In this document: positions 2,891 through 24,372 of the stretch, one piece after another
Position numbering within the stretch: the first letter of the stretch is position 1
How the letters are laid out: each line of letters starts with the position of its first letter
DNA from: Neisseria sp. 27098_8_112
Lineage (GTDB): Bacteria; Pseudomonadota; Gammaproteobacteria; Burkholderiales; Neisseriaceae
Length of the DNA stretch: 32,000 bases
Assembly (NCBI RefSeq): GCF_041433235.1
Contig: NZ_JAPWBB010000002.1
Coordinates: 64,730-96,729, forward strand
Reading direction: 5' to 3'
The notes under the pieces: generated by a model
The model's input: only the letters and a program-made list of their open reading frames with translations
The model's database searches: none
What the model was told of the DNA's origin: nothing
Position numbers and translations under genes: made by a program

Positions 2891-4288
2891 ATGAAACTGT
2901 TTCAACGCATCTTCGCCACATTTTGCGCAGTCATCGTCTGCGCAATCTTTGTGGCGAGTTTTTCATTTTGGCTGGTACAAAACACCCTTGCCGAAAACCA
3001 ATTCAACCAACGCCGCACCATCGAAACCACATTGATGAGCAGCATTATTTCCGCATTCAACTCACGCGGAGACAGCGGTGCGCGCGAAATTCTTTCCGAA
3101 TGGAAAAACAATCCGGTTTCCAATGCCGTTTATGTGATTACCGGCGACGATAAAAAAGATATTTTAGGCCGAAACATCGACAGCCTCTCCATTGAGCGCG
3201 CCCGTATCTTTGCCATCAACAACCCCGAATCTGATTTGGCACACATCGAATACGACCGTTTCGGCGAAGAATACCTCTTCTTTATTAAAGGCTGGGACAA
3301 TCATCAGGCTCAACGCCTCCCTAGCCCGCTCTTCATTCCCGGCTTGCCGCTTTCGCCTATTTGGCACGAATTTATCATTCTGTCTTTTATCATCGTTGTG
3401 GGGCTCTTGATGGCATACATCCTTGCCAACAACATCACCAAGCCTATTAAAATTTTAGGTGGCGGCATGGACAGAGTGGCTAACGGCGAACTTGAAACCC
3501 GCATTTCCCAACAAGTTGACGACCGTGACGACGAATTGTCCCACCTTGCCGTACAGTTCGACAAAATGGCCGAAAAGCTTGAAAAACTTGTTGCCAAAGA
3601 GCGCCACCTGCTCCACCACGTTTCGCATGAAATGCGTTCGCCGCTGGCGCGTATGCAGGCGATTGTCGGCCTGATTCAATCTCAGCCGCAGAAACAAGAG
3701 CAATATCTCAAGCGCCTTGAAGGCGAACTGGTGCGCATGGATACTTTGGTCGGCGAATTGTTGACCCTCTCTCGCTTGGAAACTTCCAATATTCCTTTGG
3801 AAAAAGAAAACCTCAAACTCGTTCCTTTCCTGACCAACTTGATTGAGGACAACCAAAGCATTGCCCACCAAAACAACCAAAGCGTTACCCTGAGCATTGA
3901 CCCAAAAATCCCTGAAAATGCCGTAGTCAGCGCCAACGAAGGCTATCTATACCGTGCCTTTGACAACGTGATCCGCAATGCCATCAATTACAGTCCGGAA
4001 GGCAGCACCATTCAAACCCATATCGGACAAGACGGCAAAAACTGGATTATCGATGTTACCGACAACGGGCCTGGTGTCGATGAAATGCAGCTTTCGCATA
4101 TTTTCACTGCCTTTTATCGCGCCGACTCCAGCGCACACAAACCCGGTACAGGTTTAGGGCTTGCATTGACACAGCACATTATGGAACAACACTGCGGTAA
4201 AATCATTGCTGAAAATGTCAAACCCAACGGCCTGAGGATGCGTTTTATCCTTCCCAAAAAGAAAGCCGGAGACAAAAAAGAAGTCTAA
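2891..4288 (+). CDS. Sensor histidine kinase, CpxA-like (2 TM, HAMP, HisKA, HATPase_c)
   Basis: N-terminal TM, periplasmic segment, second TM, H-box HVSHEMRSPLA, N-box RNAINYSP, G-boxes DNGPGV and GTGLGLAL. It lies 15 nt downstream of the regulator gene. Confidence 0.9.
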   Translation: MKLFQRIFATFCAVIVCAIFVASFSFWLVQNTLAENQFNQRRTIETTLMSSIISAFNSRGDSGAREILSEWKNNPVSNAVYVITGDDKKDILGRNIDSLSIERARIFAINNPESDLAHIEYDRFGEEYLFFIKGWDNHQAQRLPSPLFIPGLPLSPIWHEFIILSFIIVVGLLMAYILANNITKPIKILGGGMDRVANGELETRISQQVDDRDDELSHLAVQFDKMAEKLEKLVAKERHLLHHVSHEMRSPLARMQAIVGLIQSQPQKQEQYLKRLEGELVRMDTLVGELLTLSRLETSNIPLEKENLKLVPFLTNLIEDNQSIAHQNNQSVTLSIDPKIPENAVVSANEGYLYRAFDNVIRNAINYSPEGSTIQTHIGQDGKNWIIDVTDNGPGVDEMQLSHIFTAFYRADSSAHKPGTGLGLALTQHIMEQHCGKIIAENVKPNGLRMRFILPKKKAGDKKEV

Positions 4289-14957: not shown

Positions 14958-16379
14958 ATGAAAATCATCCCCATCTCAAATAACACCAACACAAACAATG
15001 AATTACCGGAATTCGACCGCGAATTGATTGCCAGTTTGCCATCAAGCGGTCCACGTTATACATCCTATCCGACCGCCGACCGCTTCCATGAAGGCTTTAA
15101 AGAAGCCGAATATATCCAAGCTTTAAACCTGCGCAACATGGGCGCGCTCAACAAACCCCTTTCGCTCTACATCCACATCCCCTTCTGCAATACCATCTGC
15201 TACTACTGCGGCTGCAACAAAATCATTACCAAAGACAAAAGCCGTGCCGATGCCTATATCCAATATCTGGAAAAAGAAATGGAGTTGCTGGCACCGCATT
15301 TGGGCGGACGACACCAGCTTGCACAACTCCACTTCGGCGGCGGCACGCCCACATTCCTGAGCGACGACCAACTCGAACGCGTATTCGACATGATCCGCAA
15401 ATACTTCCAGCTGATTCCCAACGGCGAATACTCCATCGAAATCGACCCGCGCAAAGTCAGCCGCGAAACCGTCCTCAAACTGGGCAAACTCGGTTTCAAC
15501 CGCATGAGTGTCGGTATTCAAGACTTTGACCCTAAAGTGCAGGAAGCCGTCAACCGCATTCAAAGTTATGAAGAAACCAAAGAAGTGATTGATGCCGCGC
15601 GTGAAGCCGGGTTTAAATCGGTCAGCGTCGATTTGATTTACGGCCTGCCGCACCAAAACACCGAAAGCATCAAAACCACCATCGATACGGTCTTATCCCT
15701 CGATCCCGACCGCCTTGCCCTTTACCACTACGCCCACCTGCCGCATATCTTCAAACCGCAACGCCGTATCGACACCAATGTCGTCCCCGGCAGCGAAGAA
15801 AAACTCGATATGCTGCAATATTGCGTTCAAACCCTGACCGAGCGCGGCTACGTTTTCATCGGTATGGACCACTTTGCCAAACCTGACGATGAACTCTCCA
15901 TCGCCCTCAAAGAAGGCTTCCTGCAACGCAACTTCCAAGGCTACTCGACCTATGCCGACTGCGACTTGGTGGCGATCGGCGTGTCCTCTATCGGCAAAAT
16001 CGGCAGCACCTACTCCCAAAACGAGCGCGACATCGATGCCTATTACGCAGCACTCGACGCCGGACACCTGCCCATCATGCGCGGCTACCAGCTTAATCAA
16101 GACGACATCCTGCGCCGTAACATCATTCAAGATTTGATGTGCCGCTTCTCGCTTGATTATCAAATTTACGAAAGCGTGTTCGGCATTCCGTTTAGCCGTT
16201 ATTTCGCGGTCGAGCTGGAAGACATGAAACAACTGGAAACCCTCGGTCTGGTTCGTCTCAAACCGCACGGTCTGACCGTTACACCGAAGGGCCGTTTCCT
16301 GATCCGCAACATCGCCATGGTATTCGACTACCATTTGCGCCATAAAGAAACCAAAGCCAAATACTCACAAACCGTATAA
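14958..16379 (+). CDS. hemN: Oxygen-independent coproporphyrinogen III oxidase (radical SAM)
   Basis: GPRYTSYPTA, the radical-SAM CNTICYYCGC cluster motif, GGGTPTFL, and a 473-aa length typical of HemN. Confidence 0.93.
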   Translation: MKIIPISNNTNTNNELPEFDRELIASLPSSGPRYTSYPTADRFHEGFKEAEYIQALNLRNMGALNKPLSLYIHIPFCNTICYYCGCNKIITKDKSRADAYIQYLEKEMELLAPHLGGRHQLAQLHFGGGTPTFLSDDQLERVFDMIRKYFQLIPNGEYSIEIDPRKVSRETVLKLGKLGFNRMSVGIQDFDPKVQEAVNRIQSYEETKEVIDAAREAGFKSVSVDLIYGLPHQNTESIKTTIDTVLSLDPDRLALYHYAHLPHIFKPQRRIDTNVVPGSEEKLDMLQYCVQTLTERGYVFIGMDHFAKPDDELSIALKEGFLQRNFQGYSTYADCDLVAIGVSSIGKIGSTYSQNERDIDAYYAALDAGHLPIMRGYQLNQDDILRRNIIQDLMCRFSLDYQIYESVFGIPFSRYFAVELEDMKQLETLGLVRLKPHGLTVTPKGRFLIRNIAMVFDYHLRHKETKAKYSQTV

Positions 16380-16493
16380 ACAGGAATGGAAAAGATGATA
16401 TATTGGCCTGTCAATTATTAAAATAAGTTAATTTCTTATGTTTATGTTTTTAATAGGTATTTAGTTATTGCATTTTCAACAGAAACGACAAAG

Positions 16494-16523
16494 AACGGCT
16501 GTTTTTACAGCCGTTTTGTTTTG
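16494..16523 (+). terminator. Hairpin plus T-run between hemN and the recombinase stop codon
   Basis: AACGGCTG-TTTTTA-CAGCCGTT followed by TTGTTTTG. I cannot decide whether it belongs to the host (hemN terminator) or to the element. Confidence 0.5.
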
Positions 16524-16533
16524 TATGAAATTG

Positions 16534-17490
16534 TTAAACCGTCTGATGACGCGCTTTATCAAACGGTTTTTTAGTCTTGTGTATATAAAAGGCGATTTTT
16601 GCCAATTTCCGCATTAGTGCAACAATGATTATCATCTTAGGCTTTTTTGCCGCTTCCAAATTGCTTACAAGTTGAGGAAATGCATTCATGCGGTAGGCAA
16701 CAAGGGCAGGCATAAACAAAGCCCGTTTTAATTGGCGGTGTCCGTATCGGCTCAATCTGCCTTTTTTATTGACACTTGTCCCTGATTGTTCAATTTTTGG
16801 ACTTAGACCGGCAAAGGCTACAAATTTATTCGCTGTTTCAAAATTCTTATCTGTCAAGTGTCTTAGTAGGATCACTGCGGTTTCTTTTCCTATTGCCGGT
16901 ATGATTTGCAGGTTTTGATATTCGATATTTAGGCTTTCTTTCTGTTTTATCATGCCATCTATCCGCTTTGATGTCTGATCTATTTTTTCTTCAAGTAGTT
17001 CTATGATTGCTTCATGGGTTGATTTTATGTAGATGTCTTTTGCAGTATGCAACCTGTTTTGTGTTTCTTTTTGCTGTTCCTTGAGTTGTTGCAGCAGATT
17101 AACCAACTTATAGAGTATTGGATTTTCAGACGGCCTAAACGGTGTCAGTTTGTCTAAGTGTCGGTTTGCAAATTCGGCGATAAGTTTTGAATCTGCTTTG
17201 TCTGTTTTGGTATGGCTAAACTGACTTTTTGCGTATTCTTTTATTTTCAAGGGATTAATTACATAAACGGTATAGAGTGCGCTCAAATATTCTGCCGCCT
17301 GTTCGTAGTAAATGCCTGTTGCTTCCATACTTATGGCAATTTTTCTGATTCTTTTTGTTTTTATCCAATTAATCAGATTCTCAAATCCTTCTGTATTATT
17401 TGATATTTTTATATAGTCTTTGTTTCCTTTAGTTGTAATCAATGTTGCGTCTATCGTGTCTTTAGATACGTCTAAACCTATTACATTCAT
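16534..17490 (-). CDS. IS110-family (Piv/Irg-like) DEDD transposase/recombinase
   Basis: N-terminal RuvC-like DEDD motifs (IGLDVSKD, SMEATGIYY, KTDKADS) and the C-terminal Transposase_20-type motif (AGLSPKIEQSGTS...RLSRYGHRQLKRALF). RBS AAGGAA lies 7 nt upstream of the ATG. The gene contains one canonical host-type DUS (17125-17136). Confidence 0.9.
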   Translation of the reverse strand: MNVIGLDVSKDTIDATLITTKGNKDYIKISNNTEGFENLINWIKTKRIRKIAISMEATGIYYEQAAEYLSALYTVYVINPLKIKEYAKSQFSHTKTDKADSKLIAEFANRHLDKLTPFRPSENPILYKLVNLLQQLKEQQKETQNRLHTAKDIYIKSTHEAIIELLEEKIDQTSKRIDGMIKQKESLNIEYQNLQIIPAIGKETAVILLRHLTDKNFETANKFVAFAGLSPKIEQSGTSVNKKGRLSRYGHRQLKRALFMPALVAYRMNAFPQLVSNLEAAKKPKMIIIVALMRKLAKIAFYIHKTKKPFDKARHQTV

Positions 17491-17640
17491 TTCATTTTCC
17501 TTATTTATTCAGCCTGATACGGCTATGATGATATTCAATCTTTAAGGTAATTGGACGGTTCGACATATCTTTTCCTCAGTTTTTAACTCTGGTCGTTATA
17601 CTGTCTAAACCGCCCAGGCTTTTGTTTTGCGCTTAAACAA

Positions 17641-17680
17641 AAACCTGTAAACCGTCTTAATTAAAACGATTTACAGGTTT
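17641..17680 (-). repeat. Long hairpin, terminator-like on the minus strand
   Basis: AAACCTGTAAA...TTTACAGGTTT, perfect 11-bp arms. The 18-nt spacer (CCGTCTTAATTAAAACGA) is itself self-complementary around TTAATTAA. A T-run follows on the minus strand. Confidence 0.6.
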
Positions 17681-17707
17681 CAATTTAATTTACCCAATTT
17701 CAAAAAG

Positions 17708-17721
17708 GCGGGAGTTCCCGC
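17708..17721. repeat. GC-rich palindrome GCGGGAGTTCCCGC
   Basis: 6-bp arms separated by 2 nt, with an A5/T5 run adjacent. It could be a protein-binding site or a small hairpin. Confidence 0.4.
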
Positions 17722-17729
17722 ACCCCGTT

Positions 17730-17785
17730 GATATTTATTTAACCGTTGATTCCGCTTAGGCTACATCAACAATTAAATAAATATC
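17730..17785. repeat. 21-bp AT-rich inverted repeat immediately after the zot-like stop codon
   Basis: GATATTTATTTAACCGTTGAT (17730-17750) against ATCAACAATTAAATAAATATC (17765-17785): 19 of 21 complementary, 14-nt loop. Confidence 0.7.
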
Positions 17786-17787
17786 TC

Positions 17788-18948
17788 TTAACTGCCGACC
17801 TTTGCACCGTTTTGGAATCCTGTTGTTTCGCCTGCTTCAACATAGCCGTCATACATCAGATTTTGAGGGCTTTTACCGCCCATCGTAAGCACTTGTCCAT
17901 TTTCAGGCGCGTAGGCTGTCTGCGGTGCTGTTTGTGGCTGTTGTACGGTTTGATGCTCGTCCTTGTACGGGTTAAACGGCAAGCCATTTTTGACGTAGTC
18001 TTTGCACATGACTTTTGTGATTTCTTTCAGCGGTGTGCCCTGGCTTGAGTAACAGGTACATCCGCTTTTGCCGCCATCGACACAGCCAACAGGGTATTCA
18101 AATGTTTTGACTTGGCGGACGCCGTTGTAGATGGGTTTGCTTTCGGGTTTTTCGACGAGTGTAGGTACAAAATCTTCAGGTTTGAGATTTTGCCCTATAT
18201 CGGCAGTCGCAGGACTAGTTTTTGGTTCTACGCCATCTACATCGGATGCGGCTATTGTTGACGTTGTTTGCTGTTCATCCGCGCTAAATCGTTTGCTCAT
18301 GTTGTTTATCGTGTAAAGCGTGAAGCCTATTAAAAGGGGAATAAACAGGACAACGAATATCAGGCTTTTGGGAATGCGACGTTTCGGCTTAGTATGCACT
18401 TCAGCAGACTTGTACATGCCAAAAGACTTTTTAGGAACTACAAACGTCCGCTCAATGGCTTTAGCAATATTTACGCTGCTATCGGGCTGGTCAACGCATT
18501 CGTTCCATTCGTAAAGCTTACGTCCCACTGGCTTGATTGAAACGTGCATATGCCTTTGAACGAGCTTTCTTACGAAACTATCAAGATAACTTGGATGTTG
18601 AGTAATCAGGACAATATCTAAACCATGATGTCGATGTAATGCCAAAGCTTCTATAAATGGAGGTACTTTTGAAGCTGCTGAACGTGTGCCCATCAGCCTT
18701 TGCACTTCGTCTATGATGACGAGCGAGCCATAAGGGAGAAAATCTTGAAATGGCTTTTCTTTAATTTGTTCATCTGTAAGTTCTTCATGTTCTATCTTCA
18801 ATTCAGGAATGCCGTTGACGAACAATGGACGTTTTTTCTTTACTCCGTCTTTATCAGTAAAATGTGTGTAGCTTTCGTCTGTCATAAGCATATTGACGAC
18901 AGAGCTAGTTTTTCCGCTACCTGGTACACCAGTTTGTAAAATAATCAC
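17788..18948 (-). CDS. Zot-like / pI-like filamentous-phage assembly ATPase
   Basis: Walker A GVPGSGKTS at residues 7-15, Walker B LVIIDEVQ, a central TM segment (LIFVVLFIPLLIGFTLYTI) and a periplasmic C-terminal domain. Its start overlaps the upstream ORF by ATGA. Confidence 0.88.
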   Translation of the reverse strand: MIILQTGVPGSGKTSSVVNMLMTDESYTHFTDKDGVKKKRPLFVNGIPELKIEHEELTDEQIKEKPFQDFLPYGSLVIIDEVQRLMGTRSAASKVPPFIEALALHRHHGLDIVLITQHPSYLDSFVRKLVQRHMHVSIKPVGRKLYEWNECVDQPDSSVNIAKAIERTFVVPKKSFGMYKSAEVHTKPKRRIPKSLIFVVLFIPLLIGFTLYTINNMSKRFSADEQQTTSTIAASDVDGVEPKTSPATADIGQNLKPEDFVPTLVEKPESKPIYNGVRQVKTFEYPVGCVDGGKSGCTCYSSQGTPLKEITKVMCKDYVKNGLPFNPYKDEHQTVQQPQTAPQTAYAPENGQVLTMGGKSPQNLMYDGYVEAGETTGFQNGAKVGS

Positions 18949-19238
18949 TTAGCTTTTCCCCCTGGAATAAAGGATAGTTTGCTGATACTTTGCATGGCAA
19001 CGTTAAATGCAAATGCACCGAATATCAGACCTAATGCATGGCCGAAACCTGCCATCATGACAATTTGAAGAATGTCTGACGGCATTGAGTTGAACTGATT
19101 TTTTACGTAGTCTTTTATAAAACCTAATCCAACTGTAAAACCTGTATAAGTTACAAAACTAATGCCAAGGGCAATAAATACTTTTGCAACAATATAGGTT
19201 AATAGCCTTTGTAATATGGCGAAAAACGCAGCTTTCAT
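18945..19238 (-). CDS. pVI-like minor coat / membrane protein (DUF2523-like)
   Basis: 97 aa with three hydrophobic segments. It sits between the adsorption protein and the pI-like gene, as in other inoviruses. Confidence 0.6.
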   Translation of the reverse strand: MKAAFFAILQRLLTYIVAKVFIALGISFVTYTGFTVGLGFIKDYVKNQFNSMPSDILQIVMMAGFGHALGLIFGAFAFNVAMQSISKLSFIPGGKAK

Positions 19239-19241
19239 GCT

Positions 19242-20762
19242 TTAATCCTTTCTACTTGAAAACATGATATATGCTGCTGCTACCGCAGCGATACCAATCA
19301 CAAGGAATCGGATCATTTCGGCAAAATTACAAATCATGTCATATTTAAATTCCGTGGTTATGCCCAAATAGGTTGCAGTTCTTGGAGCAGGGCAAACACC
19401 ATTATCGGGTAGAAAGAAATCAGGGCTAAATGTTGTATCGTTATTTGTATGAGGAATTTTGAAAGGTTCTTCTTGTTCCTCTACATCGCCTTTTTCTGAA
19501 CAAGCTAATATGTCAGGGAAAACATTACAAAGTAAGCCTTTTGATTCTTCTTTCTTGTCATCTTTTTTATCTTCTTTTCTTTTATCTTTATCAGATGGAT
19601 CATCATCCGGATCAGGCTTATCATCTGGACGTTTATCAGGCTTATCATCAGGTTTTTTATCGGGCTTTCCATCAGGATTAGGCGCAGGATCTGGATCAGG
19701 CTTTGTATTGGGTGCTTCAGATCCGCCCGGTGTCAAATCAGGACGTTGAGTAGTTGCGACTTCTGCCGTTGTATTGCCGTTGGAGTCTTTGCCGAAAGTT
19801 ATGGTAATTTGAACCGGTTTACCGTTTTCGGGAGTGACAGGGCCAATTGTTACAACAGTACCGGCAGGGACTGATACTTTTTCGTTATATTCTGGTTTGC
19901 CTGTGCCTTCTACAAATGGCGTGGGGTTACTATCTATTGATGGGGTTGCGATTTTTAGGAATTCTTGAGAATCCAAGACTGTAGGGAATGTACCTTCTTT
20001 CAATTTGAAAGAAATAGAGCTACGTGAATCACTACCATTTGAAACTGAACAACTTCCGCCGTTTAAATCGAATAAGCATTTACTAACATTATATTTAAGA
20101 TATTCTTTATTGCCATCATCAACTAAATATTGCCTACGTTCAGGCCAATAATTATTAGCCATCGCTTCCATTTTCGATTGCATCAAAAATTCTGCTTCAG
20201 ACCTACTTTTTCCTCCGAGTTTATATGCTCTGATGATTGAAGAATCAACACCTGTACATTCATATTCTTTATATATTTCATTTGGATATTCGCCCCTTCT
20301 ATCCCAAATGCACAATTTATTATCCCAATATTTAAGGAATTCTTCAGATTTTTCATCATATTTGTAGCCAGCAGATTCAATTGGGGATTTAACAGCTTGA
20401 TAAGCTTCGTAGGCAAGCAGTGCGCCGCCTATGTAGAGATTGCCTCGACTTGAAACGGCTAGTTTTGCGCCACTTTTAACTAGACCGAATGCGCCAGAAA
20501 GGACGGCTTTTCGGGATACTTGGGCTTCAACCGTTGCATTTACAGTTTGTTTTGCCAAATACCCTTCATAGCGAGCCTTCATAGCTTCCGTTTGAAATTT
20601 ACGATATAGATTATCAGAAACAGACCTATTCCAAGGCTGCTTATCCCAGTGTGCTGTATGCTGACCATTATAAGTAACTGATTTACCTTTAATATTAATA
20701 TCGCCAGCAAATAAATAAGAACTTCCCAAAAAAAAGAAGAAAAACAAAATTAATTTATTCAT
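19242..20762 (-). CDS. pIII-like adsorption / minor coat protein (TspB-like)
   Basis: Signal peptide MNKLILFFFFFLGSSYLFA, a large N-terminal domain, a Pro/Asp/Lys low-complexity linker, and a C-terminal membrane anchor FLVIGIAAVAAAYIMFSSRKD. It is the largest virion gene and sits in the pIII position. Confidence 0.7.
   Translation of the reverse strand: MNKLILFFFFFLGSSYLFAGDINIKGKSVTYNGQHTAHWDKQPWNRSVSDNLYRKFQTEAMKARYEGYLAKQTVNATVEAQVSRKAVLSGAFGLVKSGAKLAVSSRGNLYIGGALLAYEAYQAVKSPIESAGYKYDEKSEEFLKYWDNKLCIWDRRGEYPNEIYKEYECTGVDSSIIRAYKLGGKSRSEAEFLMQSKMEAMANNYWPERRQYLVDDGNKEYLKYNVSKCLFDLNGGSCSVSNGSDSRSSISFKLKEGTFPTVLDSQEFLKIATPSIDSNPTPFVEGTGKPEYNEKVSVPAGTVVTIGPVTPENGKPVQITITFGKDSNGNTTAEVATTQRPDLTPGGSEAPNTKPDPDPAPNPDGKPDKKPDDKPDKRPDDKPDPDDDPSDKDKRKEDKKDDKKEESKGLLCNVFPDILACSEKGDVEEQEEPFKIPHTNNDTTFSPDFFLPDNGVCPAPRTATYLGITTEFKYDMICNFAEMIRFLVIGIAAVAAAYIMFSSRKD
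19611..19676 (-). repeat. Tandem 24-bp coding repeats in the pIII-like linker
   Basis: ATCAGGCTTATCATCTGGACGTTT (19611-19634) and ATCAGGCTTATCATCAGGTTTTTT (19635-19658), plus a degenerate third copy. They encode KRPDDKPD and KKPDDKPD. Confidence 0.8.
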
Positions 20763-21060
20763 TTCGTACTTTTTCTATTTCCTTCTTCTCTTCTATAGAT
20801 CTATTTAAATCAGCCATGAACTTAACCATATCAGGATCTGATGGACTCGGTTTTTTTGGACTTGTATTCATTAAATAAAAATCATCGTTATCCGATAATT
20901 TATTATTAGATTTAAATTTATTTTGAATAAAACCTAATAAATTTATAACTAGATAAGATACCATCATGAAATATCTAATTTCATTAGGAATAAAAATAAT
21001 ATTTAAAAAATACAATAAATAGAGAAGAACAAAAACAAGATTAAAAATTCTAATAAACAT
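20755..21060 (-). CDS. Hypothetical small membrane protein (2 TM N-terminus, charged C-terminus); extremely AT-rich moron candidate
   Basis: 101-aa ORF whose stop overlaps the pIII-like start by 8 nt. A hand count of 20881-21000 gives 21 G+C in 120 nt. I recognise no homolog. Confidence 0.5.
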   Translation of the reverse strand: MFIRIFNLVFVLLYLLYFLNIIFIPNEIRYFMMVSYLVINLLGFIQNKFKSNNKLSDNDDFYLMNTSPKKPSPSDPDMVKFMADLNRSIEEKKEIEKVRNE

Positions 21061-21111
21061 AATACTAACTTTCGTAATGGTTGCTGAAAGTTAGATTATA
21101 TCGCTTCTTCA

Positions 21112-21348
21112 TTAAAACGAACCATAACCACTGTCTATCATGTCTTCAACCGTACTATCTTCAGGCATAAGACCGGCATCAATAAGGAAATTTAAATAAT
21201 CCTGATGTTGGTCATAACCATCTGACCAAACCCTATCCATATACTCTTCATGCGTTTCATGATCAGAGTCAGGCTCCATAAAGTCACCGAAGCCATAATC
21301 TGCCCCGCCATAACTAGCTCCTTGTTCATACTCAAAATCATCTTCCAT
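21112..21348 (-). CDS. Hypothetical hyper-acidic 78-aa protein
   Basis: 14 Asp and 9 Glu against 1 Arg and 0 Lys, rich in Tyr/Phe/Gly, with no TM segment or signal peptide. AGGTAA lies 5 nt upstream of the ATG. Confidence 0.55.
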   Translation of the reverse strand: MEDDFEYEQGASYGGADYGFGDFMEPDSDHETHEEYMDRVWSDGYDQHQDYLNFLIDAGLMPEDSTVEDMIDSGYGSF

Positions 21349-21356
21349 ATCATTAC

Positions 21357-21425
21357 CTATTTAAAAATCATCCAGCCCACCACGACCGGAACAAACACAC
21401 CTAGATAAAAATAAAAATCCATCAT
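21357..21425 (-). CDS. 22-aa hydrophobic micro-ORF, possible pVII/pIX-like minor coat protein
   Basis: Hand translation gives MMDFYFYLGVFVPVVVGWMIFK*. It starts 4 nt after the upstream stop, with AAGG 8 nt upstream, and ends 8 nt before the next ATG. It is below the ORF-track length cutoff. Confidence 0.35.
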   Translation of the reverse strand: MMDFYFYLGVFVPVVVGWMIFK

Positions 21426-21429
21426 GGTT

Positions 21430-21708
21430 TTACCTTAATTTCTGCCATATCAACCTAATACCCCAAACCGCTGCCATGATGGCAACAACTGACCAGCCTA
21501 TATAGGATCCGTCCTTCATGCTGTCTATTGGGTTACATTCTGGCAATTCAGCTTTTAAAATCTGTTCCCCATATTTCCAGCCAAACTTATTAAAATTGAG
21601 CTGATATAGCTTTCCGTCATCGCCAATTTTGGGAGGCACTAAACTGAAATAGACGTTTTCGGCATCCTGACGGGTTGCATAACAATTATTTCCGACTTGG
21701 TAGCCCAT
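21430..21708 (-). CDS. Hypothetical phage protein with a C-terminal TM anchor and basic tail (minor coat candidate)
   Basis: 92 aa ending in IGWSVVAIMAAVWGIRLIWQKLR. It lies directly downstream of the major coat gene. Confidence 0.55.
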   Translation of the reverse strand: MGYQVGNNCYATRQDAENVYFSLVPPKIGDDGKLYQLNFNKFGWKYGEQILKAELPECNPIDSMKDGSYIGWSVVAIMAAVWGIRLIWQKLR

Positions 21709-21733
21709 TATTAAATACTCATGTCAATTAGTA

Positions 21734-21762
21734 TTCAGACGACCTTTAAGGGGTCGTCTGAA
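21734..21762. repeat. Inverted pair of variant DUS (GGTCGTCTGAA) forming a hairpin after the major coat gene
   Basis: TTCAGACGACC-TTTAAGG-GGTCGTCTGAA. The position is analogous to the post-gene-VIII terminator of Ff phages. Confidence 0.6.
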
Positions 21763-21774
21763 ATATGCTTCAAA

Positions 21775-21993
21775 TTAGCGCAATACGCGGCGGATCAGCT
21801 GGATAGCAAAGATTGAAGCGATAATACCCAGTACGATGGCCGCAACGGATAATGCGTCAGTTTTGGCAGTAGCCAAGTCGGTTTTAACGCTTTCAGGTAC
21901 TTCGGCCAATGCTTGAGTAGCGAAAGCCAGAGGAGCTGCGGCAACAACGGCCAGTTTTGCGCCGTATTTACGGCAAGTGTTCATCAATTTCAT
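21775..21993 (-). CDS. pVIII-like major coat protein
   Basis: 72 aa. Signal peptide ending AFATQALA, then a mature peptide with an acidic N-terminus (EVPESVKTD), a hydrophobic core (AAIVLGIIASIFAIQLI) and a basic C-terminus (RRVLR). Confidence 0.85.
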   Translation of the reverse strand: MKLMNTCRKYGAKLAVVAAAPLAFATQALAEVPESVKTDLATAKTDALSVAAIVLGIIASIFAIQLIRRVLR

Positions 21994-22078
21994 GATGTTT
22001 TCCTTAACGAAATGTTTAAAAAAATGTGTTAGCGGGCTATGTGAAGGTTTTAGAGACCGCCCGCCGAGCCTCTTAAAC

Positions 22079-22282
22079 TTAATCTTCTTTTGTATAAAAA
22101 CTAAAAATTAAAAATTCGCCGCCGATTTCTTCAATCGCCGAACTGAAAGCATCTTCATAACTTTCATATTGACCGGCAGATTTAATGTTAGGCGTAAAGC
22201 CAATATCGCCGAATGGATCGGGATAGATAAATTCATGGTTTTCGAGTTCTTGTACAATAAATTTTTGCTGATACTTACTCAT
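22079..22282 (-). CDS. Hypothetical phage protein (67 aa, acidic)
   Basis: ORF in the compact phage operon with an RBS-like sequence upstream. No recognisable motif. Confidence 0.45.
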   Translation of the reverse strand: MSKYQQKFIVQELENHEFIYPDPFGDIGFTPNIKSAGQYESYEDAFSSAIEEIGGEFLIFSFYTKED

Positions 22283-22295
22283 GATTCAGCCTTTC

Positions 22296-22607
22296 TTAGG
22301 CTTTGGGCGCTGCGCCTTTAACTTGGAAATCAAGCAATTTTGGAACAAGGCCTTTACCTGTTGATTCCATTGCAACGGTTACGTCAACCGCGCATGGGAA
22401 TTTAAGATTTTTCAGCTTGTCGAAATTATGGCTATCGCCAAATTTCATGCTTGCCGCGGTAAAGCCTACGGCATTGCCGTTTGAAGGCATAGGGCTGGCT
22501 ACCAAAACAGTGCAAGAATCGATTTTGTTACCGTCGATTTCGCCTTTGAATTGTTTTGCTCCCAAAAGGGTTGCTGAATACGTGGTTACTTGGCTTTGCT
22601 CAAACAT
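22296..22607 (-). CDS. Putative ssDNA-binding protein (pV-like)
   Basis: 103 aa, immediately downstream of the replication gene. Size and position match inovirus gene V. There is no sequence motif I can verify. Confidence 0.5.
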   Translation of the reverse strand: MFEQSQVTTYSATLLGAKQFKGEIDGNKIDSCTVLVASPMPSNGNAVGFTAASMKFGDSHNFDKLKNLKFPCAVDVTVAMESTGKGLVPKLLDFQVKGAAPKA

Positions 22608-22619
22608 TTTGAATTTCCT

Positions 22620-23963
22620 TTACTTGTTTAAAAAATTTGAAATAATTTTCTCTTCGAGTTCGATGTCTTTAATGTGTTGTTTTTCCCTATCTTGTGGGAA
22701 TGCGGTTTCTTTCTCATCAAGCAAATCATCAAGTAATGTTTGCATGTTCAAATCATCAATTGCTTTTTGCTCTTCGTGTATATACTGAATCTTTTGTGTC
22801 TGATCTCTACAATCGTATTGTTCAGGTTGTAACCCTTTGGGATAACCTTCAATGCCTTTTACAAGTTCATCGACGATTTTTGTATCATCCCAGCCTATAT
22901 CGCGGAGGAAATTAACCATTTTTCCAACCTGATTACGCGCATGGAACAGTTTGTGATCGAAAGATAAATTTACTGTTTCTGTCTTGGCATCCATCCGCTT
23001 GGCTTCTGTTTTGAATATCGCCGTACATATCGGATAAGCACCGCCAAGATACGAACCGGGATAAAGCAAAACATCTAAGGGAATTTCTATATCGCCCGCA
23101 CGAAATTCAGTTTCAAACCTGACCCATGGACTATTGACATCGCCAAATTGTTTTCCTTTCTCATAAACGCGAGTGAATTTTGAATTGCCGCGTTTACCTA
23201 CATAAAAGGTTTTGCCGCTACCATCATCATTGCGCCATGCAGTACCTCGACATTCGCTTTTAGGCCTCATGTTATGAACGTCAAAATGACCGTTGTCATG
23301 ATCAAGTAATGCTTGATCGGGTGTGTATTCGCCGTTAAAAAAATCATGGGCCACATCAACACGGGTAATTTTTGGACGTATGCACTTACTTAAAAACTCA
23401 TACAGTCGGTTTTCCCAACCGGGTATAGCAGCCTGACAACCTGTACCATTCAATTCAACTAGCATTGTTTCTCGCTGACCGCCATAATGAACCTTGCCAT
23501 ATTCGACGTTATCCGGGCCTAGTTGGTAACAGCTTTTATAGAAAAACTTTCCTTTGAACGGTAATTTTTGGGTAATGCCAAAACCGAAAATTTCTTCTAA
23601 CAGCTCGCTATACTTCACAACAAATTCCGTATCGGATACCAATCCTTTGCCTGTTACTTTCGGCAAACTGTCTTCGTGAATCGTAAAAGTGATTTGGTCA
23701 ATAAATGCGCCGTCATCCCTTCCTCTTCTTAACGGTATTTCAATGAATTTGCCTTTTCCATCCGATACGAAATGACTGAAATATTCAAACTTAAAATCTT
23801 GGTTATCCGATTTTTCCGCACCCTTCGGATTAGGGGTTTTATTTTGCTCCCCCCCTATTAGCCTAGGGGGGCAGCCTTCGGCGGTTGTCGCAGCCTTGCC
23901 GTCCGCTGACGCGGCCGCCATGTCTGCGCCTACCGCCACGGCTTTATATTCCAAGGCTTTCAC
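22620..23963 (-). CDS. Rolling-circle replication initiator (Rep_trans / RstA-like, pII analogue)
   Basis: 447 aa. Conserved-looking blocks are HYGGQRETMLVELNGTGC, ITRVDVAHDF, and FYVGKRGNSKFTRVYEKG, which carries an R-x-Y-E-K putative catalytic-Tyr motif. The N-terminal ~60 aa are low complexity and GC-rich, so the true start is uncertain. Confidence 0.8.
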   Translation of the reverse strand: MKALEYKAVAVGADMAAASADGKAATTAEGCPPRLIGGEQNKTPNPKGAEKSDNQDFKFEYFSHFVSDGKGKFIEIPLRRGRDDGAFIDQITFTIHEDSLPKVTGKGLVSDTEFVVKYSELLEEIFGFGITQKLPFKGKFFYKSCYQLGPDNVEYGKVHYGGQRETMLVELNGTGCQAAIPGWENRLYEFLSKCIRPKITRVDVAHDFFNGEYTPDQALLDHDNGHFDVHNMRPKSECRGTAWRNDDGSGKTFYVGKRGNSKFTRVYEKGKQFGDVNSPWVRFETEFRAGDIEIPLDVLLYPGSYLGGAYPICTAIFKTEAKRMDAKTETVNLSFDHKLFHARNQVGKMVNFLRDIGWDDTKIVDELVKGIEGYPKGLQPEQYDCRDQTQKIQYIHEEQKAIDDLNMQTLLDDLLDEKETAFPQDREKQHIKDIELEEKIISNFLNK

Positions 23964-24174
23964 GGTTGCATTCCTTATCCATCAGTTCTTTTACAAACAA
24001 TCTGCCGCATTCATACGCTTCGTTTTCGGTTTTTTGTTTCAAAGTCGGATTGCGGATAGGGAAACAAACTGTTTTGATGCATTGGGATTCGTTGTCTTTA
24101 TCCCTGAACACTTTCAAGATGTATGCTTTCGGGAAAGATAAGGGTTCGGGATTGACGGTATAGAAAATAAACAT
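23944..24174 (-). CDS. Hypothetical 76-aa protein at the head of the phage operon
   Basis: The ORF overlaps the rep start by 20 nt. Its RBS (AAGGGG) is embedded in a hairpin arm. Function unknown. Confidence 0.4.
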   Translation of the reverse strand: MFIFYTVNPEPLSFPKAYILKVFRDKDNESQCIKTVCFPIRNPTLKQKTENEAYECGRLFVKELMDKECNRESLGI

Positions 24175-24178
24175 GATT

Positions 24179-24210
24179 AAGCCCCTTCACTGGCTAGAGT
24201 TAAGGGGCTT
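24179..24210. repeat. Hairpin AAGCCCCTT-(14 nt)-AAGGGGCTT abutting the first phage ORF
   Basis: Perfect 9-bp arms. On the minus strand the 3' arm contains the presumed RBS of the 76-aa ORF. Confidence 0.6.
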
Positions 24211-24253
24211 TACAAGAATTAAGAATATGCGCCCCTGATGGAACGCAATATAT

Positions 24254-24283
24254 AAGGTCGTCTGAAAATTTTCAGACGACCTT
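24254..24283 (+). terminator. Variant-DUS inverted-pair hairpin with T-run at the right prophage border
   Basis: AAGGTCGTCTGAAAATTTTCAGACGACCTT followed by TGTTTTTATTTT. No plus-strand gene precedes it in the present arrangement. Confidence 0.5.
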
Positions 24284-24372
24284 TGTTTTTATTTTCAATA
24301 CTTTCGGGTAACATAAAACCATACTTTCCGCTTTATCAGAATTCAAAGTTAATTTGTATAGGCGCGTATCCT

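Follow-up and report, generated by a model that had tools for sequence, protein, structure and literature searches.

How does a filamentous phage that carries its own transposase read the chromosomal site into which it inserts? The question is raised by a 32,000-nt stretch of contig NZ_JAPWBB010000002.1 of Neisseria sp. 27098_8_112 (the window, whose coordinates are used throughout), which holds an Nf-type filamentous prophage of 7.9 kb (16393-24256, genes on the minus strand) with an IS110-type recombinase gene at its end. Sequence comparison makes it highly probable that the ~190 nt directly upstream of this gene (17491-17680) encode a bridge RNA like that of the insertion sequence (IS) IS621, with one loop for the phage attachment site (attP) and one for the chromosomal target, and that the whole phage integrates by RNA-DNA pairing. 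An initial annotation had proposed a bridge RNA for the entire 297-nt non-coding stretch 17491-17787, the distal 107 nt of which are excluded here. Neisseria filamentous phages, MDA included, have been known since 2005 to insert at short repeats by their own transposase, with the reading of the site left open, and Kawai et al. in 2005 reportedly described Nf filamentous prophages of Neisseria with a pivNM/irg transposase.

The transposase of Nf/MDA prophages has already been proposed to be their integrase (PMC2212043), and a paper on Thermus phages notes IS110 transposases at the ends of inovirus proviruses, without an RNA (PMC11437467). The papers on Nf/MDA phages that were searched propose no RNA component, and the full texts searched, which leave most subscription journals outside so that an earlier description is possible, link no bridge RNA to filamentous phages, Nf, MDA or the repeat dRS3.

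The attachment sites were defined by comparing the window with six related loci (loci are designated here by L numbers), which places the prophage ends at ~16390 and ~24260, and by reading attP from complete circular salivary inovirus genomes. In one of these, L035, attP is ATATCAT-CT-TATATATTG (longer stretch, GGCCAATATATCAT-CT-TATATATTGCGTTC), and in OR148974.1, which matches the prophage in gene order and has a recombinase gene 98% identical, the joined site is ...TTGACAGGTCAATATATCAT-CT-TATATATTGCG.... In the sense of the recombinase gene the junctions read TTTTCAGACGAC-CT-TATATATTGCG (attL) and CAATATATCAT-CT-TTTCCATTCC (attR), and the chromosomal site before insertion (attB) is reconstructed as TTTTCAGACGAC-CT-TTTCCATT, with CAGACGAC-CT-TTTCCATT as a shorter form and TTTTCAGACGAC-CT-TTTCCATTCCTG when written with a longer right side. 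An empty hemN site at L092, where an identical HemN protein is encoded and no prophage is present (...CAGAAATGGAAAAGGTCGTCTGAAAATTTTCAGACGACCTTTG...), equals this reconstruction except for one substitution. The overlap of attP and attB is just CTT, and the empty site reveals no other target duplication. CT occurs at both junctions and in the empty site, which answers the suggestion in the initial annotation that a common core dinucleotide be looked for, and is likely to be the core, as it is in IS621. A core of CC or of a single C, drawn from the prophage junctions alone, was rejected because the circular genome gives the overlap CTT. The attP of the circular replicative form lies ~140 nt downstream of the recombinase gene.

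The target so defined is the 3' foot and T-run of an inverted-repeat terminator behind hemN that is formed by DNA uptake sequences (DUS). The repeat dRS3 (ATTCCCN8GGGAAT) is found at neither junction, in agreement with the earlier statement that dRS3 flanks are lacking; its only two near-matches anywhere in the window fall within phage genes, at chance level. Remnants at this hemN site occur in two other loci, L007 (10009-10060) and L063 (~3190-3240), attL (GACGAC-C) being fused there to a position within the recombinase gene (..GCAAATC|ATACCGG). The junction corresponds to window position 24256 joined to 16903, with everything between deleted, and the internal site contains ATCATA, like the left donor half; the arrangement is reminiscent of the 'half-match' excision named in the title of a 2026 preprint.

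The 297 nt upstream of the recombinase gene are, as initially described, free of open reading frames (none of at least 40 aa on the minus strand) and dense in secondary structure, the folding energy of -100.8 kcal/mol comparing with -58.8 ± 4.7 for 200 dinucleotide shuffles (z = -8.98), none of which reaches the observed value. Homology across lineages begins exactly at 17680, and the block from there to the gene is ~88% conserved with the guide segments as its variable spots. Within it, the hairpin with 11-bp arms that had been noticed initially is the 5' stem-loop (SL1; extendable to 17633-17688), and the long-range interrupted stem recognized earlier is the basal stem of the target-binding loop (17602-17616 / 17552-17565), its 3' arm having been placed ~10 nt off. 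To these are added a second hairpin, a donor-binding loop and the guide sequences themselves (Table 1). Two further elements of the initial annotation exist as described and lie outside the candidate RNA: a 21-bp inverted repeat (17730-17750 / 17765-17785), which is also outside the conserved block, and a GC palindrome followed by T5 (GCGGGAACTCCCGC + T5), upstream of the RNA, on which a terminator scan concurs. On the other side of the recombinase gene, the 3' flank (16395-16533) contains a terminator hairpin, a -35 box and the left donor half, and no RNA.

Reading the loops by the rules worked out for IS621 (PMC11208160; PMC11208158) assigns each a left and a right guide. The left target guide (LTG) and left donor guide (LDG) have the sense of the top strand, and the right target guide (RTG) and right donor guide (RDG) are reverse complements of the right half-sites together with the core. 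The check proposed at the outset, complementarity of loop guides to the junctions and the empty site, thus came out positive for both loops. As a control, the E. coli IS621-like copy L071 was read in the same way, which recovered the known guides and sites: for the published target ATCAGGC-CT-AC it has the LTG AUCGGGCCU and the RTG GUAG, its LDG ACAGUAUC stops after the core C, its RDG ends in CAAGG ~15 nt before the ATG, and the 5' stem-loop is present. The order and spacing of the loops in the phage RNA coincide with those of this control. The candidate handshake bases (AU after the RTG and G after the RDG) hardly vary across the set.

Further evidence comes from variation among related phages. 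A scan of genome contigs gave 7 loci; viral and metagenomic contigs proved more useful, and guides were paired with junctions at 18 independent insertion sites. The RTG is complementary to its target at 127 of 144 positions over these sites (permuted mean 111.4, maximum 125; p <= 1e-5 in 100,000 permutations). Position +6 is a Watson-Crick pair in all 18, with three pair types represented, and position +7 is Watson-Crick in 13 and G:T in a further 4; examples are ACGAAAAG with CTTTTCGT (L047, L049), AAGAAAAG with CTTTTCTT (L040) and GACAAAAG with CTTTTGTC (L060). At the variable position of the LTG, ACG[N]CC, guide and target have the same base in 10 of 11 guide/site pairs (A-A in 5, G-G in 4, T-T in 1), the sole exception being an rG:dT wobble. 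Donor guides behave likewise. In a matrix of 9 x 9 lineages, IS621 included and with recombinase identity down to 34%, the LDG matches its cognate donor over 8-10 nt and non-cognate donors over at most 7 nt, apart from one pair of lineages that have the same donor half. In L073, where attP has TGTAT in place of TATAT, the RNA has UACAAG in place of AUAAG. Covariation, which had been named as a test of the idea, is therefore positive in both respects, in that guides track targets and attP and stems carry compensatory changes.

Three loci from one frameshifted metagenome-assembled genome (MAG) were left out of these statistics. This Neisseria MAG carries three prophage copies at different DUS-type sites (L003, L005 and L006, on the same contig as L058, L065 and L068), and the recombinase genes of all three (L003, L005, L006) are frameshifted, probably by homopolymer sequencing errors, which makes the protein identities of L005 and L006 (46-47%) and the odd A-run lengths in some of their guides unreliable. 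An apparent conservation of the leader despite a protein identity of just 46-47% was accordingly rejected as an artefact.

The fold is conserved together with the guides. RNAalifold, applied to 16 distinct sequences, recovers the 5' stem-loop, the second hairpin, the stem of the target loop and the inner stems, with nine pairs showing compensatory changes. Of all stem cells in the alignment 98.6% are paired, a control in which stem partners were slid against each other lowers pairing to 37-52%, and the observed covariation was reached by 0 of 500 shuffles. The target loops of nine lineages, again including IS621, fold to one architecture. A covariance model built from the close family scores best immediately before the start codon of the recombinase gene in five divergent phages (E values: L038, 2e-11; L074, 5e-8; L072, 8e-5; L079, 0.002; L034, 0.03). 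The model has one more match in L038, in the region of attP and on the other strand (2956-3059, minus; E = 0.004), which is attributable to guide-donor complementarity and nearby hairpins, the RDG of the model aligning with the reverse complement of CTTATATATT.

The protein fits the same picture. By sequence, the recombinase is a member of the IS110 family, IS621/Piv group, with DEDD and the catalytic Ser conserved: D7, E56, D97, D100, S236 and G237 align with IS621 D11, E60, D102, D105, S241 and G242. It matches the NCBIfam model NF033542, 'IS110 family RNA-guided transposase', at 208 bits against a cut-off of 140, and its closest solved structures in the PDB are the transposases of ISCro4 (9t56, 2e-50) and IS621 (8wt6, 1e-48).

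More distant relatives have other targets and guides to suit them. Nf prophages inserted in dRS3 (L079, L091; recombinase 37% identical), which were found by a pattern search for dRS3 joined to a phage end, sit in ATTCCCGC-CT-GCGCGGGAAT, and their loop carries AAACCCGCC (CCCGCC) and CGCGCAG, matching that site. These phages have the right half of attP, TATATATTGC, in common with the window phage, and their RNA is laid out in the same way. The suggestion that a bridge RNA would explain the missing dRS3 flanks is thereby sustained, since the guides of the window phage specify the foot of a DUS terminator and those of dRS3-inserted relatives match dRS3. A phage of Eikenella type (recombinase 40% identical) is located at TTTCAGGTAGC-CT-TTTTTATA, the left half of which is the reverse complement of AGGCTACCTGAA, which we take to be the Eikenella DUS; it carries GUAGCC (for TTCAGGTAGC-CT), GAAAAAAG and a left donor match of 11 nt. 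The MDA phage itself inserts at ATTCCCNC / GNGGGGAAT within dRS3 (ATTCCCNNNNNNNNGGGAAT), and the best match of MDA ORF9 is the IS621 transposase (Bille et al., 2005, PMC2212043).

Sites can also be predicted from the target loops of circular inoviruses. Those of L036, L037, L038, L072, L073 and L074 give AAACGGC-CT-TTTGTG, GCCTGTA-CT-TTGAACC, AAACGGC-CT-TTTTGA, GTACGGC-CT-TTACC and GCACGGC-CT-TTGCTTC, and 4 of these 5 predicted left halves end in ACGGC, like the reverse complement of AG-DUS. Over the whole window the 12-mer DUS of the host, AGGCCGTCTGAA, occurs 21 times, and AGGTCGTCTGAA occurs 4 times, two of these forming the hemN terminator. The guide ACGACC exactly matches the rarer variant GTCGTCTGAA at that terminator and not the common AGGCCGTCTGAA, and the idea that the guide matches the DUS dialect of the host was tempered for this window for that reason. 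Phages with an ACGGCC guide would find eight suitable ACGGCCTTTT sites in the window. Inside the prophage (21743-21762), between phage genes, two GTCGTCTGAA variants form an inverted pair, a hairpin of the same type as the target that lacks the ACGACCTTTT foot.

Several observations weigh against assigning a bridge RNA to 17491-17680. In the window the LTG matches just 6-7 nt; the second base of the core is left unpaired by both left guides, an A standing opposite it, as in the IS621 left donor guide; and the RDG pairs discontinuously, with AUAAG as its sole contiguous part, a discontinuity also reported for IS621. Over the 18 sites position +8 has no complementarity. The insertion sites are independent, although the guide variants are not phylogenetically so, the phage sequences being related. 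The covariance model is not significant on IS621 or L073. A sigma-70 scan of the minus strand from 16300 to 18000 finds no promoter for the RNA, and ahead of SL1 there are just weak -10-like hexamers, seen by eye in several lineages, with poor -35 boxes; read-through of the zot operon or a weak promoter may supply the RNA. The Neisseria transcriptome papers checked do not mention a transcript from the region, and an Rfam 15 scan of the whole window gives 0 matches at gathering scores and, at E up to 10, only chance-level matches to miRNA-like hairpins, with no bridge-RNA family among them. What is read directly from compared sequences comprises the attachment sites with their CT core and the empty site, the matches of the guides and their covariation, the fold and the catalytic residues; production of the RNA, its binding by the recombinase and its requirement for integration are presumed from family membership.

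Other explanations of the region fail because none accounts for the covariation of guides with sites. The hairpins might be signals that act in the single-stranded DNA of a filamentous phage, such as a packaging signal or a minus-strand origin, and be unrelated to any RNA guide. Hairpins of this kind are kept between the genes of inoviruses, as the Ff phages illustrate, and the structure is on the packaged strand; this strand has the sense of the RNA, so that G:U stems cannot tell an RNA from phage single-stranded DNA, which also counts against the bridge RNA. Yet this explanation leaves unaccounted for the covariation of loop bases with both chromosomal targets and attP, and the same layout stands ahead of the recombinase gene in the non-phage element IS621. 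It is improbable for the region as a whole. It may hold for the hairpin with 21-bp arms at 17730-17785, outside the RNA block, which is possibly, to judge from its conservation, a single-strand DNA signal of the phage, for example in packaging or replication: L037 and L074 keep GTTGAT..ATCAA(C/T) around its loop, and their outer arms differ in sequence yet still pair. This hairpin is absent from the L002-type lineage.

A second explanation, of similarly slight probability, holds that the region is a structured 5' leader controlling translation or stability of the recombinase mRNA, the protein alone reading the sites. The RDG does overlap the ribosome-binding site, leader and gene are contiguous, and the scan found neither a promoter nor a terminator that would serve a separate small RNA. 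Recognition by protein alone, however, predicts neither complementarity nor covariation between loops and sites, and the close relatives with solved structures are the transposase of IS621, which works with a bridge RNA (PMC11208158), and that of ISCro4. A regulatory role would in any case be compatible with guiding.

It is very doubtful that recombinase and RNA form an independent small IS110 element inside a phage that integrates by other means. IS110 elements usually measure ~1.5 kb, and some relatives of the phage, such as Thermus phiOH3, lack the gene (PMC11437467). Contrary to this reading, the RNA matches donor halves that are the ends of the whole 7.9-kb prophage, the right half being 6.6 kb away beside the rep module. 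Moreover, no CTTATAT-like end is seen upstream of SL1, and 11 guide/site pairs on long-enough contigs (of 18 attR sites) have an attL end 5-9 kb upstream. Chance structure and chance matches in AT-rich intergenic DNA, for which one could cite the shortness of single matches (5-9 nt) and the commonness of T-runs and A-runs, were tested and can practically be dismissed in view of the folding z score (-8.98), the permutation result (p <= 1e-5), the diagonal dominance in nine lineages and the compensatory stems.

On the bridge-RNA reading, integration would proceed as follows. The RNA would fold into the 5' stem-loop, the small second hairpin and two loop-bearing stem-loops, of which the target-binding loop (AACGACC, AGGAAAAG) would pair with both strands of CAGACGAC-CT-TTTCC and the donor-binding loop (AAUAUCAUC, ..AUAAG) with attP, ATATCAT-CT-TATATATTG. 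The recombinase would then exchange strands at the common CT core, inserting the entire phage genome with no further duplication, so that the prophage would behave as a giant IS110 element.

The joined attP may have an additional function. A sigma-70-like motif, TTGACA-18 nt-TATATT, spans the joined attP only, with its -35 at 16409-16414 and its -10 at 24247-24252, and equivalent motifs with 17-18-nt spacers occur in seven phage lineages and in IS621 (L034-L038, L072-L074, L071). In the prophage the -10 half stands right behind the host DUS terminator hairpin. As a motif, the junction promoter faces the rep module; 6.6 kb of phage genes and then a terminator precede the RNA, and hence the promoter is directed at the replication genes rather than at the RNA. 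Integration would split -35 from -10, and excision would restore the promoter. The right donor half adjoins a conserved GC-rich hairpin that comes immediately after it (~24222-24246, minus strand), with equivalents in L036, L072 and L074, which is followed by a T-run in several lineages (e.g., GCCCC-ATGAAA-GGGGC-ATTTTT in L074) and could be an attenuator, an operator or a Rep nick site.

Taken over the whole group, it seems likely that Neisseriaceae inoviruses (those of Neisseria, the Eikenella type and the dRS3-inserted Nf/MDA-like phages) adopted an IS621-like bridge-RNA recombinase as a lysogeny module with the whole phage as cargo, that the target loop is being reprogrammed in nature, one base at a time, in pursuit of repeats abundant in the host (DUS-hairpin terminators of different dialects, and dRS3), and that a promoter split by integration may switch the replication genes on and off.

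Table 1. Positions of the candidate RNA, its guides, the attachment sites and neighbouring features in the window
Feature	Position	Strand	Basis or remark
Candidate bridge RNA: SL1, second hairpin, target-binding loop, donor-binding loop, up to recombinase ATG	17491-17680	-	Homology and fold; putative 5' end
SL1, 5' stem-loop, counterpart of the IS621 bridge-RNA 5' stem-loop	17641-17680	-	Compensatory UA->CG at three pairs
Second small hairpin, GGUUUUUGUUU / AAACAAAAGCC; GGUUU common with SL1 3' arm	17617-17645	-	100% of cells paired, one compensatory pair
Target-binding loop: basal stem 17602-17616 / 17552-17565, internal loop, inner hairpin 17578-17588	17552-17616	-	Four compensatory pairs
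LTG AACGACC, 5' side of target loop	17591-17597	-	Identical to left target top strand GACGAC-C
RTG AGGAAAAG, 3' side of target loop	17569-17576	-	Reverse complement of CT-TTTCC over its last 7 nt
Candidate handshake guide AU, after RTG	17567-17568	-	Complementary to donor positions 6-7 (AT); cf. IS621 A81/U82 (PMC11208158)
Donor-binding loop, overlaps ribosome-binding site	17499-17536	-	Inner hairpin UAGCC..GGCUG, 17510-17525
LDG AAUAUCAUC	17527-17535	-	Equals left donor
RDG AAUAAAUAAG	17500-17509	-	AUAAG is the reverse complement of CT-TAT
G17499, possible handshake base after RDG	17499	-	Complementary to target C7, as in IS621
attR: -35 box TTGACA 16409-16414, left donor half GGCCAATATATCAT, core CT 16393-16394, then right target TTTCCATT toward hemN	16393-16414	-	Junction, circular genome and empty site
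attL: hemN DUS inverted-repeat terminator 24255-24284, left target CAGACGAC, core CT 24255-24256, right donor half TATATATTGCG, -10-like TATATT 24247-24252	24244-24284	-	Junction comparison
Intrinsic-terminator-like hairpin + T5, ends zot operon, outside RNA	17702-17721	-	Terminator scan; upstream of conserved block
Hairpin with 21-bp arms directly after zot stop codon, outside RNA	17730-17785	-	Inverted repeat
Rep_trans	22620-23963	-	Pfam
TspB	19242-20762	-	Pfam
DUF2523	18945-19238	-	Pfam
Zot	17788-18948	-	Pfam; flanks 297-nt stretch
Recombinase, 318 aa, last prophage gene	16534-17490	-	Pfam DEDD_Tnp_IS110 PF01548 + Transposase_20 PF02371
hemN	14958-16379	+	Abuts prophage

The gene content is that of an Nf-type phage, with Rep_trans, TspB-like, DUF2523 and Zot genes and a terminal IS110-type transposase, all on one strand. 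Protein clusters 60-75% identical to the recombinase come entirely from commensal Neisseria or Uruburuella, with none from N. meningitidis. IS110-type recombinases 28-33% identical occur in the records of the Thermus phages Zuza27, Zuza8 and phiOH16 and of Wolbachia phage WO.

If the bridge-RNA reading is true, the RNA is the answer to how the site is read, and integration sites become predictable from ~15 nt of RNA. Replacing ACGACC by ACGUCC and AGG by ACG in the loop would shift integration from CGACCTTTTCC-type to CGTCCTTTTCG-type (CGTCC-TT-TTCG) sites, and changing the LDG from AUAUCAUC to AUACCAUC would make the RNA require an attP of L036 type. The phage variants would amount to a set of bridge RNAs reprogrammed in nature, each with its cognate target, from which guide rules can be learned, those on offer being a 7-nt right guide, tolerance of G:T, and a left guide that covers the first core base only. 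A bridge recombinase would, moreover, naturally move an 8-kb replicon with the RNA gene far from a donor site, and phage lysogeny would be linked to DUS, which mark the terminators of Neisseriaceae and so provide many safe intergenic landing sites.

Integration of filamentous phages at specific sites is familiar from CTXphi, which uses the host XerCD tyrosine recombinases at dif with a folded single-stranded attP. Like CTXphi, the window phage is a filamentous phage with an RstA/Rep_trans module that becomes a prophage at a specific short site, whereas it brings its own predicted RNA-guided DEDD recombinase. It resembles the Nf/MDA prophages with a pivNM/irg transposase (PMC2212043) in its gene order, from rep through tspB and zot to the transposase as the last gene, and differs from them in targeting the foot of a DUS-hairpin terminator rather than dRS3. 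With the seekRNA of the IS1111 group (Siddiquee et al., 2024, PMC11187229) it has in common, on the bridge-RNA reading, an RNA-guided DEDD transposase with recognition of both target and donor. In IS1111 elements, however, the RNA lies 3' of the gene and there are subterminal inverted repeats, whereas the 3' flank of the phage gene contains nothing beyond a terminator, a -35 box and the left half of the donor. The 'expanded' IS110 loci that bear cargo (bioRxiv 10.64898/2026.08.14.744561) are similar in that an IS110 recombinase and its bridge RNA move many kb, partly of phage origin; they hold accreted resistance and plasmid cargo between half-matched boundaries, whereas the passenger in the window is an entire inovirus that replicates itself and has kept its two donor halves intact. 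Neisseria and filamentous phages go unmentioned in the text of that preprint.

The closest comparison is with IS621 (PMC11208160; PMC11208158). The phage recombinase (318 aa, the size class of IS621/Piv) is 35% identical to the IS621 transposase and has the same DEDD and Ser residues. The IS621 RNA and the candidate phage RNA both lie 5' of the gene, beginning with the 5' stem-loop and continuing through the target-binding loop to a donor-binding loop that ends just before the ATG, and both systems have left guides in top-strand sense, right guides as reverse complements, a CT core and, in the phage as candidates, AU handshake bases after the RTG and a -35/-10 promoter across the joined ends. 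Even the donors resemble each other (..GTAT-CT-TGTAT in IS621, ..TCAT-CT-TATAT in the phage). Unlike that of IS621, the phage RNA has an extra small hairpin after the 5' stem-loop and an RTG of 7 nt instead of 4, and the phage targets a family of repeats in the host, DUS terminators in its own case and dRS3 in that of relatives. The largest difference is in scale: a compact element spans 1.3-1.6 kb with the RNA at its left end, and IS621 is an IS of 1.3 kb, whereas the mobile unit in the window is a 7.9-kb phage genome with the RNA 6.6 kb from the right donor end.

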